A stretch of 64,000 nt of DNA from a virus (Duplodnaviria; Caudoviricetes): positions 1,934-65,933 of IMG/VR virus record IMGVR_UViG_3300046170_000320, one strand, 5' to 3'. This document shows positions 25,819 through 30,804 of the stretch, in pieces (position 1 is the stretch's first letter; each line of letters starts with the position of its first letter). Below the pieces are notes generated by a model. That model was not told the origin of the DNA, made no database searches, and saw only the letters and a program-made list of their open reading frames with translations. The position numbers and the translations under genes were made by a program.

Positions 25819-25952
25819 TTTGAAAATCGTTACAAATAGAGGGGTTTGGTGTTCAACTATCGTGCCAAACTGTTACAAACTACATAAAAACGAATTATTT
25901 TAGCCACCCCCGACCCTATTTTTTACATATTCTAATGAATGTTTTCAACTTT

Positions 25953-26580: not shown

Positions 26581-28831
26581 ATGTCAACTAAATCTTATAC
26601 ACTACTAAAAATATCACTTAGAGTTTACAAAACTCACTGGCTTGAACTTACTGATGAGCAAAAGTCTGAAGTGTTAGATATATACTATGATTTCTATTAA
26701 AATAATATAAATATGCAACATAGAAATATACCATACGAATATCGTGAGTGGACTTACGAAGGCACTAAATGTTCTGCCTTTACATGCAAGTACTTTAACT
26801 TTCACCCTTATCACATTATGTCTTTTTCTACAGAACTAGAACAAGATATGATCGCTCAGATCGATGAGTACATAGATAACCGTGAAGTATACAAAGCAAA
26901 GCGTGATATGTCTACTAAAGCAGCAGCGGACTTCTATAAAACATTAACTTTTAAAAATGATTAACTATGCAGTTTATACAAATAACTAACAATAAAGAGA
27001 TCGATATGACTTCTCTTATACTAAAACAAATACAAGGCGAGATCACACGCGATGAAGTCTTACAAGTAATAAATGATAATATAGTAAAAAATTCAGATGA
27101 GATATAATATAATATATTGGAGTAATGGCTCCTATGAACCAGAGATAATAGATGAAGCGGAAAATAGAGTAGAAGCTCTAAATCTTGTAAAAGAATACAG
27201 GATCGCTTTTAAGTGTAACAATATAAGTTTTCAAAGAATATGAAAGAAAATATAATTAAAACCATAATAATAGTAGGTGCATGTGCTACTTCCTACACAA
27301 TAAGTAATAATATAGCGCAAGAGATCGCTGCATCATCATTCGAGGCAGGTAAAGAAGCTAAATACAATGAGATCAAGCAAAGAGCTGAAGACATTAATCA
27401 ATACGGCGAAGGTTATTTCACATCACAAGATGTTGAAGAGATCTTAGAAGGTTATTATGATGATGAAGAAGGTCTCTAAATGCAAGTAATGATAGTCAAT
27501 GGTACAAGATACCTTATCAACACATCGACGCCTGATGGCGGGGATTCTGCCTGCGAGTACATATTAAAGTATTATGACCTCAATGCGATCATAGAATTTG
27601 ATAGTGCAAAAGCAGATGATTACAAACAAAATACAATAACTATTGGATAATATAATAAACAAAACTATGCAACAAATAAAATTCTTATCAAACAATCAAA
27701 TATTACTTAATAACCAACTCTATCAAGGTTATAATATCGGCGAGTTACCAAACACCTTTGGTTTTATATACAATGAAGACAAAGATCAAGACGGTATTAG
27801 CGAATGGTTTAACTACAAAGGTCTTACTTATGTCGCCAAGTAATATGAAAGAGCTGCTAATCTATGCAGAGCAGCAGAAGAAACTACGTGCAAGCGAGCA
27901 TAGGCGTAAGCACGCACATGACGGGTTATGCAGTGGACTTACAGATGTCGAGTACAATCGAGTTGTAACTAGACAGAAATCTACCTTTTCGAAAGGCTAG
28001 AAAGTTCACTCACAACCGTATGTGGCGAGATAATACAAAGAAATTTACAGTAGAACAACTTAAATTAATTAAAACACTATGACAAATTATCAAAAAGAGC
28101 AATTTCTGCTCGAAGAACAGTATGTAAAACGTCTACTTATCGATTACGGAATCAGAGAAGTAACAACACAGCGTCAAGCTAAAAATGAAACTCGTGAGTT
28201 TGAATTTCCTGTGCCTGCATATACTAAACAAAGACTTGAGTGGTATAAGCGCAAGAAATATGAATTTAAAGACTTACCACGACTACGCATTGCTTGTTTC
28301 AAAGTCAGGTTATGTACGTAAGCAAAACGGTGCAGACAGAGCATATCAACTAAATCCTACATACGAGCAAAATTATAGATGCGTATGGCAGAGACAAGAT
28401 GGTGAGATTTATATATCAAAAGGTATGACTAAAGCTCGTGCGCTTATACTTTCACCAATAACAAGATTAAACTTTATGTTAAACTATTACCTTAAAAACT
28501 ATGCAAACAATTAAACTAACAGAAAACGACTGCATTTTCGTACACTATGTACTACGCATGTACGCTCAGCAAACACCTGGGCTTGATCAAGAAGACAAAG
28601 AAGAAATACGTGAAGTCGCAGCTAAATTTAAATAATATGAGTAAAATGAAAGAAATAGATCTTATAGCGCAAGGCGTTGCAGATCACTGTAAAGAAATAA
28701 TGTATGACACTGTCGAGTGGCAGATATCAGATCAACCTGTTGACGGTGATGATTTTAACGAGTTACATAGTTATGTAATGAGTAAAGCAATCGAATACCT
28801 TTACAAACAAAATACAAACACTGTTGGATAA
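26581..28831 (+). CDS. Run of small early hypothetical genes (e.g. 26581-26700, 26713-26964, 27240-27479, 27668-27843, 28079-28514 with indel, 28501-28635, 28637-28831)
   Basis: Abutting short ORFs with A-rich leaders; no recognisable domains. Confidence 0.5.
27621..27652 (+). promoter_or_regulatory. Class I motif, copy 4
   Basis: Exact boxes; upstream of ATG 27668. Confidence 0.8.
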
Positions 28832-28833
28832 TA
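28802..28833 (+). promoter_or_regulatory. Class I motif, copy 5
   Basis: Exact boxes; overlaps the end of the upstream ORF; upstream of ATG 28861. Confidence 0.8.
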
Positions 28834-28860
28834 TATATGTAACAAATAAAATAAATAACT

Positions 28861-29049
28861 ATGTATTGTAGATGTGGTACAACCGTCCACCCTGTCCGTT
28901 TAGAACTGGGATATAAAACTTGTGTGAAGTGTTCAACAACTAAAACATACTCGTATGTCCCTATCATTGAGCACAAGACGGGCAATACAATACAAATCGT
29001 CAGCCAAGAAGTTAGCGCATCTGTGCACAGAGCTTGGCGGCGTAAATGA
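28861..29049 (+). CDS. Small C4 zinc-finger protein (TraR/DksA finger-like)
   Basis: CRCG...HPVRLELGYKTCVKCS. Confidence 0.6.
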   Translation: MYCRCGTTVHPVRLELGYKTCVKCSTTKTYSYVPIIEHKTGNTIQIVSQEVSASVHRAWRRK

Positions 29050-29077
29050 TGGAAGCACCGTAATGGTCCATCAAATA

Positions 29078-29191
29078 GCTACAAGTTAGTATCGAGTAGT
29101 AATGCGAGTGAGAATGCAAGTGAACTGGTGAGGGATCGTTATGAACTCAGGAATCTAAAAACACTCAATAGTTATTACCCTAGCTTGTAGC
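29078..29191 (+). ncRNA. Rod-like structured RNA candidate
   Basis: 12-bp closing stem gctacaagttag/ctagcttgtagc, then gtagtaat/gttattac, gagtg/cactc, tgag/ctca; G-U pairs favour the + strand. Confidence 0.55.
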
Positions 29192-29195
29192 ATAT

Positions 29196-29268
29196 GGGCG
29201 TGTAAATGGTTAGGGGTTCTGCTTTGTGCATTACCTAAACGCAGGTTCGATTCCTGCCACGTCCACTA
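29196..29268 (+). ncRNA. tRNA-like RNA resembling the tmRNA tRNA-like domain
   Basis: Acceptor GGGCGTG/CACGTCC-A with G3-U70; T arm GCAGG-TTCGATT-CCTGC; no D stem; no canonical anticodon arm. Confidence 0.7.
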
Positions 29269-29270
29269 AT

Positions 29271-29358
29271 AGAGAGATGGCAGATATGCAGTTCATGGCT
29301 TGTCCAACACAAAACGCGGGTAATCCGTAATCGAAGTGCTTCGTGGACACATCTCTCT
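29271..29358 (+). ncRNA. Multibranch structured RNA candidate
   Basis: agagagatg/catctctct, tgtcca/tggaca, inner gcgg/ccgt and cgaa/ttcg hairpins. Confidence 0.55.
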
Positions 29359-29389
29359 TATAATATTACTAATTTTAAAACAAGAACAA

Positions 29390-30804
29390 ATGCCAAATAT
29401 GAGTTATTGTCGGTTTGAAAACACCGTCACAGACATGCAAGATTGTGTAAATGCAATCGAAGAAAGAGACACAGATGAGCTCAGCAGCTATGAAGTCAAC
29501 GCTCTTTCACACTTTTTAGATCTCGCAAGAGAAATTACTAACCTCGAATATGAAATCGAAGAAATACTAGGTGAATATGACAGCTAAAGTTAGACAAATG
29601 ACAAGTAATAGCTCAGGTAATCCTGTAGCTAATCAATTCGTTATATACACTGACGAAGGAACTTACTTCCAAAGCTATGACAGCGTTATTGCTTTTAGAG
29701 ATAATAATCGTAAAATTATACTAGATAGTTACTATTGGGATTACTCACGTACTACAGGTAAATACCGCAACCAGTTTTTAGGTGAAGGTATAGCAGATAC
29801 TAGAGCTAAAATAGAATCAGGTGAGTATAAACTAGCTGATCTTCAGTAGTTACAAACAAAATACGAACACTAACGGATAATAATATAAAATAATTATGCA
29901 AAATAGACTAAATTTATGGCAAAGGCTAAAGCCTGAGTACAAAAAACAACTTAAAAAATCAAACAAGAAGTATTCTTACAAAATGGCTAGTATTAAAGAT
30001 GAACTTAAAAACACATATTGGTTTACAGATGTAAAATATGGTACTGCTTTTGATGTAATGACGCCTAACAAGCTAGACTTTCTTGGTGATGCTTTTAATG
30101 CAAATAAAAGTTATGAGTGAAGAAATAAAAGAACGAGCTAGACATAAGGCTTTTGCTAAAATTAGCTTTATAGAACTAGAAAACAAGACTTATAAACGAG
30201 ATATTAAAGCAGGTGGCGACGGTAGATTATCAGTTGATCTACTAAAAACCTGTTTAAGATCTAACGAAAGAGAATTACTAACATGGCAATACATTGCTAA
30301 ACTAATAGAAACAGATGAGTAAAACACTGAACAGACGAATTAATAGAACAAACACTAGCTGATAAAGGTTGGCTAGATGTTAATGAAGCTGATCAAGAAG
30401 ATCAAAAGAAAATGGTACTTGAGCACTATGACGTAGAATTTACAGATAGATTTAATAATAACTGCCAATACTATATATACACAGAGTCAACTAGAGATGG
30501 TTACGAGGTATGGGTTGCTACTGAAGACATGGGTAATGTATGTATATCAGAAGATGTATACTACTACGACAGTGATCTTCATGTTGCACTAGCTGATGCT
30601 ATCAAAGACGAGTTATCACCTATTTACTTAGATGATGAAGATGCTGACTTTGTTGATTATGCTATATCAGAAGTATACGAGTATTTATATGATCGTAAAC
30701 TAGAAGAAGTTGAGTCAGAGCTTGAAGATCAAGGCTATGAGTGGCCTGTTATTGAGTCAGAAAAAGACTTTGCTAACGAAGTAAATAATATATTAGATTC
30801 ATAA
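29390..30804 (+). CDS. Early hypothetical genes (29390-29587 MPNMSYCRFENT-type, 29571-29849, 29896-30120, about 30113-30322, acidic ORF ending 30804)
   Basis: Contiguous ORFs; start of the first reassigned to 29390 because 29336 lies within an RNA fold. Confidence 0.55.
29851..29882 (+). promoter_or_regulatory. Class I motif, copy 6
   Basis: Exact boxes; upstream of ATG 29896. Confidence 0.8.

Follow-up and report, generated by a model that had tools for sequence, protein, structure and literature searches.

Background

The one bacteriophage gene described as consisting of the tRNA-like domain (TLD) of transfer-messenger RNA (tmRNA) is that of mycobacteriophage DS6A, which Hudson, Lau and Williams (2014; PMC4131195) list as 'TLD only', that is, without a coding sequence, and which the 2025 tmRNA database paper (PMC11915505) still gives, in the text available, as the one phage case. 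Titration of SmpB has been offered as a possible cause of the strong inhibition of tmRNA by a similar molecule (Mao et al. 2009, as cited in PMC4131195). Here we describe a locus in a window of 64,000 nucleotides (nt), the whole stretch of DNA analysed, taken from the 65,933 bases of IMG/VR virus record IMGVR_UViG_3300046170_000320, a record rated complete. At window positions 29050-29389, between two small open reading frames (ORFs), lies a gap of about 340 nt that holds a candidate gene of the DS6A kind together with other structured RNAs. We think it moderately probable that this gap is a co-transcribed small-RNA cassette, namely a tag-less mini-tmRNA with portable flanking modules and a decoy-type role.

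Phage T4 RNAC and RNAD are cut from common precursors with tRNAs. As is proposed for the RNAs of the present locus, they are small stable RNAs transcribed with phage tRNA-type genes, and their role is unknown (PMC3014915). The two sets differ in that no sequence or Rfam relation between them was found, in that the tRNA-type unit of the window is a tmRNA mimic, and in that RNAs of the window's flanking type shuffle between loci and into the tRNA-type unit. In the engineered Escherichia coli 'tRNA scaffold', a foreign hairpin sits at the anticodon-arm position and the product is processed and stabilised like a tRNA. The likeness to the window is that of a structured RNA expressed within a tRNA-type frame (PMC3753655), whereas the arrangement in the window is natural, uses a frame of tmRNA type, and has the same cargo also in unattached form. 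Plant mitochondrial t-elements, which are tRNA-like structures between or beside cistrons and proposed cut signals for RNase P and RNase Z (PMC1920247), are a further parallel; there is no homology, and in the phage element alanine identity is retained along with a likeness to tmRNA that runs through the family, neither of which a cut signal needs. The host tRNA and tmRNA fragments of the AcrIIIA1 paper (PMC11662646) are protein-bound and are not phage-encoded TLDs. A mostly abstract-level survey of the literature found no TLD-only family in uncultured phages and no grafting of hairpins, and subscription papers and supplements may hold more.

A tRNA-like domain of tmRNA without an mRNA part

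The gap holds no credible ORF, the only ones inside it being of 34-39 amino acids (aa), and the minimum-free-energy fold of 29047-29358 resolves into four units separated by 2-4 nt (Table 1). These are the four back-to-back RNAs, a hairpin, a rod, a tRNA-like RNA and an 88-nt multibranch fold, that a sequence-only reading had placed as tiles in a gap of roughly 340 nt, and the fold reproduces them at the same coordinates. The upstream ORF ends at 29049 and the next begins at 29390.

Table 1. Positions of the RNA units, flanking reading frames and upstream motif in the window
Feature	Position	Strand	Basis
Promoter-like motif copy heading the unit with the 62-aa ORF and the RNA cassette	28801..28840	+	Repeat count against shuffles
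62-aa ORF, CxC...CxxC, conserved left neighbour of the cassette	28861..29049	+	Putative zinc ribbon
Unit 1, 27-nt hairpin overlapping the stop codon of the 62-aa ORF	29047..29073	+	Fold z -2.05
Unit 2, 114-nt rod of three nested parts	29078..29191	+	Fold, covariation, recurrence
Rod closing helix	29078-29089 with 29180-29191	+	Compensatory changes
Rod invariant core with internal loops	about 29090-29120 with 29155-29179	+	Recurrence in 14 viral contigs
Rod tip module, loop motif GGUGAGGGAUCGUUAUGAACUC	29121-29154	+	Motif in 14 contexts
Unit 3, tag-less mini-tmRNA, tmRNA TLD only	29196..29265	+	Rfam, model R1, covariation
3' trailer CUAAU where CCA would stand	29266..29270	+	Sequence
Unit 4, 88-nt multibranch fold, 9-base-pair closing helix AGAGAGAUG / CAUCUCUCU	29271..29358	+	Fold, synteny with TLD
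Next ORF, 65 aa, PHROG 8760 (unknown function), right edge of the gap	29390..29587	+	ATG start at 29390

The third unit is the centre of the locus. Its acceptor stem has 7 base pairs (GGGCGUG with CACGUCC) and includes the G3·U70 pair of alanine identity, its discriminator is an A (A73) at 29265, and its T arm (GCAGG / UUCGAUU / CCUGC) has a stem of 5 base pairs and a 7-nt loop of the UUCGANU type. There is no D stem, an unpaired stretch standing in for the D-loop, and a helix leaves the elbow where helix 2 of tmRNA would; this 27-nt stub hairpin takes the place of helix 2 and of the mRNA-like domain. ARAGORN called neither a tRNA nor a tmRNA in the window. The Rfam tRNA model (RF00005) matched unit 3 at 32 bits, just over its threshold of 29, but the alignment lacks the D stem and deletes the anticodon arm or leaves it unaligned, and neither the D stem nor the anticodon stem with 7-nt loop of a canonical cloverleaf is present. 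The Rfam tmRNA model (RF00023), on the other hand, covered both ends of 29196-29268 with its positions 1-19 and 346-374, with 25 nt of the unit standing for 326 model positions. The unit thus shares with tmRNA the G3·U70 acceptor stem, the discriminator A, the T arm, the stemless D-loop and an elbow helix at the helix 2 site, and differs from it in lacking the roughly 300 nt that carry the pseudoknots, the resume codon and the tag reading frame, with a score of 34.4 bits against the tmRNA threshold of 47.

Because G3·U70, A73 and the T arm are present and the tmRNA model aligns at both ends, unit 3 is, to judge from its sequence and predicted structure, a tmRNA TLD without an mRNA part and not a generic tRNA mimic. 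The tRNA-like RNA of the sequence-only reading is narrowed in this way to a tmRNA TLD of the DS6A kind. It has the build of phage TLD-only genes of that type, which measure about 60-110 nt and have the tmRNA TLD at both ends with only a hairpin between.

Folding energies, expressed as z-scores against dinucleotide shuffles (100 for the whole region, 200 per unit), bear out the expectation that the array folds better than shuffled sequence. The whole of 29047-29358 reached -93.7 kcal/mol (z -2.67, 1 of 100 shuffles as good), and the units ranged from z -1.7 to -3.4: the tRNA-like unit scored -3.41 (1/200 shuffles as good), the rod -2.30 (7/200), the first hairpin -2.05 (12/200) and the 88-nt fold -1.71 (14/200). 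The reverse strand folded at -80.5 kcal/mol (z -1.81), so that the + strand is better by 13 kcal/mol. Folding energy alone is suggestive, modest evidence for a cassette, and the weight rests on relatives. Rfam, searched at E up to 10 over 28800-29500, gave no match for the hairpin, the rod or the 88-nt fold.

A family of mini-tmRNA genes in uncultured phages

Loci fetched through a downstream 89-aa protein included six syntenic relatives, and elements at the same spot scored above the Rfam tmRNA threshold in L003 (64.7 bits), L004 (64.1) and L006 (53.1; handles of this form denote fetched loci and contigs). A search pattern of TLD ends with 30-60 nt between them found at least 120 loci in viral contigs, some of them inside tRNA arrays (L092, L103, L119, L122). 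Among the matches listed, ARAGORN run on 120 pattern loci called 3 tRNAs and no tmRNA; for 20 diverse pattern loci the best Rfam family was tmRNA in every case, and 14 reached its threshold.

Covariation was assessed in an alignment of 81 of the 96 distinct sequences, in which L002, identical to the window, is represented by the window sequence, and from which the other 15, mostly the shortest (64-69 nt) and the longest (87-103 nt), were left out. Double changes number 32 at acceptor pair 4:69 and 31 at 5:68, neither of which is ever broken; at three T-stem pairs they number 54, 34 and 16, and the broken cases 0, 1 and 0. The pattern left both sides of all these pairs free, in contrast to G1-G3, U6-G7 and their partners, which it fixed and which carry no evidence. 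In 96% of the 81 sequences the middle segment has a better fold than shuffled sequence (mean z -1.31).

A covariance model built on this alignment, R1, found a single match in the window, unit 3, at 58.2 bits (E 3e-12), and matched DS6A at 28478-28557 with 47.8 bits, which is the published 'TLD only' element. The ORF of 62 aa upstream of the gap offered an independent route to relatives: 171 relatives of it were confirmed in viral contigs, and in the 80 loci fetched through it (79-100% identical, 5 of them too short to tell) R1 found one TLD each in 56, in every case on the strand of the ORF and downstream of it. By these comparisons unit 3 belongs to a large phage gene family that includes the DS6A gene. 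Both are phage genes of about 70-80 nt that hold the tmRNA TLD only; the window element differs from that of DS6A, an actinobacteriophage, in its origin from an uncultured marine phage, in its short stub arm, in not encoding CCA, and in lying amid portable hairpin modules that can be grafted into the arm, for which no mention was found for DS6A in the portions of the sources at hand.

An alternative origin for such an element would be as a leftover of integration, the TLD being a functionless remnant of a host tmRNA gene, either copied as an attP-type site or left by imprecise excision. Genes for tmRNA are common integration sites, and ssrA fragments occur in prophages (PMC9004378, PMC11915505). 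Yet both acceptor halves are present and covary, and no integrase was seen among the scanned ORFs (eight ORFs of at least 150 aa in the structural region lie outside that scan). Moreover, when the 22-nt 3' end of the window type, with one free position, was sought in a collection with one genome for each of 185,579 species, the 12 contigs that carry it held no full-length tmRNA, as against 6 short TLD-like elements (72-106 nt), 4 tRNAs and 2 without a match. Taken together, this origin is most improbable. The short TLD-like elements (L285, L286, L288, L289, L292, L293) have the exact T arm and acceptor 3' end of the window and come from bins of unrelated phyla, among them an Aliivibrio metagenome-assembled genome (MAG), two Bacteroidetes MAGs and an Ilumatobacteraceae MAG; most simply, they are phage contigs binned into those genomes.

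Portable modules around and within the mini-tmRNA

The rod is built of a closing helix, a core and a tip that behave differently between loci. Among the first loci, in 8 distinct instances, the 54-nt core (two strands with internal loops) never varies, and the closing helix changes in sequence from place to place with its pairing kept: 97.8% of cells are paired, as compared to 27-48% in slid controls, compensatory changes occur in 5 of 6 pairs, and the covariation score was reached by none of 500 shuffles. A dedicated scan located the core in 14 viral contigs. In four it lies inside a TLD arm, in two inside a TLD-like frame with a different 3' half, in four it is a stand-alone hairpin 16 nt before a TLD, as in the window, and in the remaining four it stands alone elsewhere. 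One contig (L327) has a TLD bearing the rod core plus the window's own tip, and another (L326) has the window's rod beside a TLD of another backbone type. The tip loop motif was found in 14 distinct contexts, on helices of unrelated sequence, its hosts being TLD arms (L248, L292), rod tips (the window, L326, L327) and other modules; in L248 it sits in the TLD arm without the rod core. Among the genome-collection contigs the motif is present on L287 and L292. A role for the rod as a tag or peptide frame was considered and rejected, since tips of differing length shift any frame, by our reading of the sequences. The same conserved hairpins, then, occur free or built into the arm of the mini-tmRNA, and the rod is, on this comparative evidence, a conserved and portable RNA module tied to the mini-tmRNA gene.

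The arm of the TLD is variable in a similar manner. Among the fetched loci the window-type acceptor backbone GGGCGUG / CACGUCC encloses 42 distinct middle segments of 35-116 nt, and of the 111 distinct arm inserts, 20 turn up again (24 nt or more at 88% identity or more) at sites where the pattern recognised no TLD, although some of these sites may belong to TLD variants that the pattern missed. One backbone with so many middles, inserts that recur elsewhere, and a tip motif carried by 14 different helices are what would be expected if the TLD and the other tRNA-like units were a display scaffold, that is, stable carriers of exchangeable cargo hairpins whose loops are the active parts, for example as decoys for RNA-binding host proteins of defence or regulation. 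Against this stand the lack of a known cargo target and of any Rfam family in the flanks, the possibility that the shuffling may just reflect recombination among co-infecting close kin at a tolerant site, and the chance that some of the matches outside TLDs sit in missed TLD variants; we regard it as decidedly unlikely.

Several other RNAs occupy the same slot in sister loci, among them a leader module, a second aberrant tRNA-like unit, true tRNA-Met and tRNA-Gln genes, and further hairpins. The first two are seen at L003:2543-2707 (also in L004, L006, L160, L145, L177, L204, L217, L220 and L253). The leader begins AGCUAGAYGA and has a variable inner hairpin; the aberrant unit combines an acceptor-like stem (AACUAG/CUAGUU) with a T arm, a small hairpin and a long arm that is variable and shares inserts with TLD arms, and it is called a tRNA by neither ARAGORN nor Rfam. 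A canonical tRNA-Met (CAT) lies downstream of the TLD in L278-L281, L245, L218, L243 and L204, about 5 nt behind the TLD in L278-L281 and behind unit 4 in L218 and L243, and a tRNA-Gln lies downstream of the TLD in L206 and L264. By these comparisons a hypervariable set of RNA modules is organised around the mini-tmRNA as its fixed point.

The 88-nt fold and the first hairpin

A scan with the first 19 nt of unit 4 retrieved 11 viral loci (one, L243, is the same contig as L296), and in all 12 places, the window included, the fold starts 5 nt after the TLD discriminator. All 25 predicted pairs are retained in the nine distinct variants and no compensatory change is seen, and variable columns are concentrated outside the helices (7 of 50 paired as compared to 25 of 39 unpaired columns, Fisher p 1.5e-6), a result that is somewhat favoured by the structure having been predicted on the same alignment. 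The unit is bracketed by two copies of ACTAAT, at 29265-29270 and 29368-29373. In L003 and L007 the TLD end is joined directly to the sequence after the second repeat, and two RNA-library contigs lack the unit, joining 29264 to 29368 and 29270 to 29373; unit 4 is therefore a presence/absence module. Like the rod, it is to all appearances in these alignments a conserved, portable module tied to the mini-tmRNA gene.

Part of the gap could nevertheless be coding, in the form of a micro-protein read from the 17-aa ORF (MADMQ...) at 29277-29330 within unit 4, which is open at the same length in 7 of the 9 distinct variants. In the other two a 1-nt insertion (L299) and a 4-nt deletion (L301) break the frame or the stop and leave the RNA helices intact, and the substitutions are mostly non-synonymous and located in predicted loops, which makes a real micro-protein very unlikely. 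A conserved frameshifted ORF across the region, which would have told against a structured RNA array, was likewise not found, this being the only small ORF that recurs. The two broken frames also led to the rejection of unit 4 as a tag or peptide frame. A permuted-tmRNA model spanning the TLD end and unit 4 scored a non-significant 14.6 bits, and the fold is therefore not read as the coding piece of a two-piece tmRNA.

The first hairpin stands apart. It recurs at 96-100% identity in 4 of the 80 sister loci (L202, L218, L234, L276) and shows no covariation; L205 is without it, and sister loci without the insertion read CGTAAATAGCTAC. The hairpin resembles an insertion of 29 nt (29048-29076), flanked by AAAT repeats, from which the ORF takes its stop codon, and as a part of the cassette it is a weak candidate. 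The proposal of four structured units has accordingly gained comparative support for three: the TLD and the closing helix of the rod covary and the pairs of unit 4 are kept, so that the conservation looked for among homologs is present there, and the first hairpin is kept as a tentative part.

Operon context and processing

Six near-identical copies of a motif of about 40 nt lie on the + strand, at 25952, 26037, 26515, 27620, 28801 and 29850. The layout is TTACAAACAAAATAC, a spacer of 8-9 nt and TTGGATAATAT, the copy at 29850 having CGGATAATAAT in place of TTGGATAATAT. With up to 2 mismatches, TTACAAACAAAATA, which in these six copies is followed by (T)TGGATAAT or, at 29850, by CGGATAAT, occurs 12 times as compared to 4.0 expected, a number reached in none of 100 shuffles, which confirms the class of repeated motif that had been noted upstream of the array. 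By our count the spacing is unlike that of a standard sigma-70 -35/-10 pair, and the motif is unlike what we take to be the promoter consensus of Bacteroidota. The six copies are probably early promoters, as far as sequence can tell. The copy at 28801 lies 60 nt before the ATG of the 62-aa ORF and the next lies at 29850. A scan limited to sigma-70-type signals detected neither a promoter within the gap nor an intrinsic terminator between 28300 and 30000; the likely hosts may use other promoters. Co-transcription of the cassette within an early operon is plausible on this layout, and the view of a non-coding structured array on the + strand, inside an early operon, holds up.

The same layout suits a second interpretation, in which the TLD is processing punctuation. 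In this interpretation it would be a cleavage signal for RNase P and RNase Z on the early polycistronic RNA, comparable to plant mitochondrial t-elements, to which a cis-signal role for RNase Z and/or RNase P is ascribed (PMC1920247). The upstream mRNA would be stabilised at its 3' end by the rod and the first hairpin and the downstream one at its 5' end by the 88-nt fold, and none of these units would act in trans. The TLD does lie, as a t-element should, within one transcription unit, here with motif copies at 28801 and 29850; the units are between cistrons; the 88-nt fold is directly 3' of the TLD in 12 of 12 places, and the rod is 4 nt upstream of it in the window and in 3 contigs. A distant relative shows a comparable order: in MW202828.1 (L311) two odd tRNA-like units, at 523-630 and 637-697, come right after an ORF annotated 'A2L zinc ribbon' and are followed by a hairpin and a T run. 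A cut signal, however, needs no alanine identity, yet the window keeps G3·U70 and A73; the rod core is inside the TLD arm in 4 of 14 contigs and cannot protect an mRNA end there; and in L085 and L238 the next promoter-like motif comes straight after the TLD, which leaves no cistron downstream to be freed. We hold the cleavage-signal role to be unlikely, if worth keeping in view, and the end-protecting role of the flanking units to be about equally doubtful. Both this interpretation and the display scaffold are live rivals to the decoy reading, and they are not mutually exclusive.

The two units of MW202828.1 differ in that one has a 46-nt insert in the anticodon arm and the other has 5 nt there. 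Its layout shows that a small zinc-ribbon ORF is paired with aberrant tRNA-type RNAs outside the clade that bears TLDs as well.

Four public RNA runs bear on the region as assembled contigs, which give no ends, strand or levels and whose libraries may also hold DNA; the uncovered stretches, roughly 29108-29209 in three of the four, carry no information. In one library of seawater depleted of ribosomal RNA, the summed depth over 28972-29073, where the 62-aa ORF ends and the hairpin lies, comes to about 2,300-2,900 as compared to about 54 just upstream, a peak that sums short contigs of several related phages and that is neither an expression measure nor used here as evidence of a stable RNA. 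Contigs of the seawater library diverge at 29075-29082 into the module variants of sister phages.

The phage and its gene neighbourhood

The large ORFs of the window match phage virion, terminase, ligase, ERF recombinase, primase-helicase, thymidylate synthase and ribonucleotide reductase families. The terminase, which matched 87 records with Tenacibaculum and Maribacter phages among them, is 62% identical to that of the uncultured podovirus MW202828 and 38-39% identical to those of Cellulophaga and Flavobacterium phages. Runs containing the stretch are seawater and marine sediment metagenomes. The source is, from these matches, an uncultured marine phage with a terminase nearest those of phages of marine Flavobacteriia.

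The gap sits in a + strand block of small ORFs upstream of the genes of DNA metabolism, and because the six motif copies lie in that block, the label 'early region' is fair, though inferred. Pfam and PHROGs gave no match for the 62-aa ORF and no function for the flanking small ORFs. Among cultured phages, a DNA search with 28800-29600 returned as its sole match a 55-nt coding match to Cronobacter phage GAP32, and one with the TLD alone returned only T-arm matches to ordinary phage tRNAs.

A possible mechanism and the points that weigh against it

Precursors of tRNA and tmRNA are matured by RNase P at the 5' end and, at the 3' end, by RNase Z or exonucleases and, if CCA is not encoded, by the CCA-adding enzyme. 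If the cassette is handled in the same way, host RNase P would cut the operon transcript at the 5' end of the TLD, and RNase Z or exonucleases would cut after the discriminator, with CCA then added. Such cuts would yield three pieces: an upstream mRNA ending in the hairpin and rod, the TLD, and a downstream RNA starting with unit 4. The mature TLD may bind host SmpB, and possibly AlaRS and EF-Tu, in competition with host tmRNA, and this competition would damp the tagging of proteins from broken mRNAs during infection; the grafted hairpins would be extra cargo or partner elements. Within the overall reading, competition with host tmRNA for SmpB is the likeliest activity of the TLD, and we put it forward tentatively, at somewhat less than an even chance, by analogy with the similar molecule that inhibits tmRNA (Mao et al. 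2009, as cited in PMC4131195). The host-takeover or anti-defence role suggested by the sequence-only reading would, like the release of the flanking RNAs, be conjecture.

A more speculative extension, which we consider improbable though not negligible, is that phages of this marine group possess a natural RNA display system in which tmRNA and tRNA frames, processed and stabilised by the tRNA machinery of the host, bear interchangeable cargo such as the rod core and the GGUGAGGGAUCGUUAUGAACUC loop. The same cargos may be loose beside the frame or grafted into its arm, and their rapid reshuffling among near-identical phages may reflect an arms race; they may be delivered to SmpB or the ribosome, or be abundant and decoy host RNA-binding proteins of defence or quality control.

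A number of observations weigh against the reading of the gap as a decoy-type mini-tmRNA cassette. One RNA-library contig spans 29252-29369 unprocessed. A Pfam scan of 45 ORFs detected no phage SmpB, no RNA ligase and no gene for RNA processing. Unit 3 is below the gathering cutoff of the Rfam tmRNA model, and CCA is not encoded after it; among all 126 fetched TLDs the discriminator is followed by CT in 50, CC in 32, CA in 29 and other dinucleotides in 15. Its D-loop region reads UGGUUAGG, where many family members read UGGUUUCGAC, and since it departs from the commonest form of the family, SmpB binding is not to be assumed. In the wider family G3·U70 was imposed by the search pattern, so that only the window and the protein-anchored loci are informative on that pair. 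Conservation is partly shared descent, because the phages are close kin (the neighbouring protein is 79-100% identical), and the rod core and most stems of the 88-nt fold are invariant and neither support nor oppose pairing. Finally, three cultured or named relatives, chosen by terminase (39-62% identity), are without such a TLD when tested with R1. The match in phi19:3 is an annotated tRNA-Cys and was rejected, elemoE gave no match, and the match in MW202828, at 21 bits, is read by Rfam as an aberrant tRNA, that phage having two aberrant tRNA-likes instead of a TLD.

Implications

What was already in print is a tag-less mini-tmRNA from one cultured phage, DS6A. To this the present comparison adds that mini-tmRNA genes are common in uncultured phages, with at least 120 loci by pattern, and that they often lie in tRNA arrays. 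The locus itself adds that the mini-tmRNA anchors hypervariable modules, with hairpins that are free or in its arm. This modular locus is a testable handle on function, whether that function is SmpB binding, the marking of cut sites or the presentation of cargo, and it suggests natural designs for the expression of structured RNAs in marine hosts of Bacteroidota type. If the decoy reading is true, these phages would possess an RNA-only means of tuning ribosome rescue and protein tagging.

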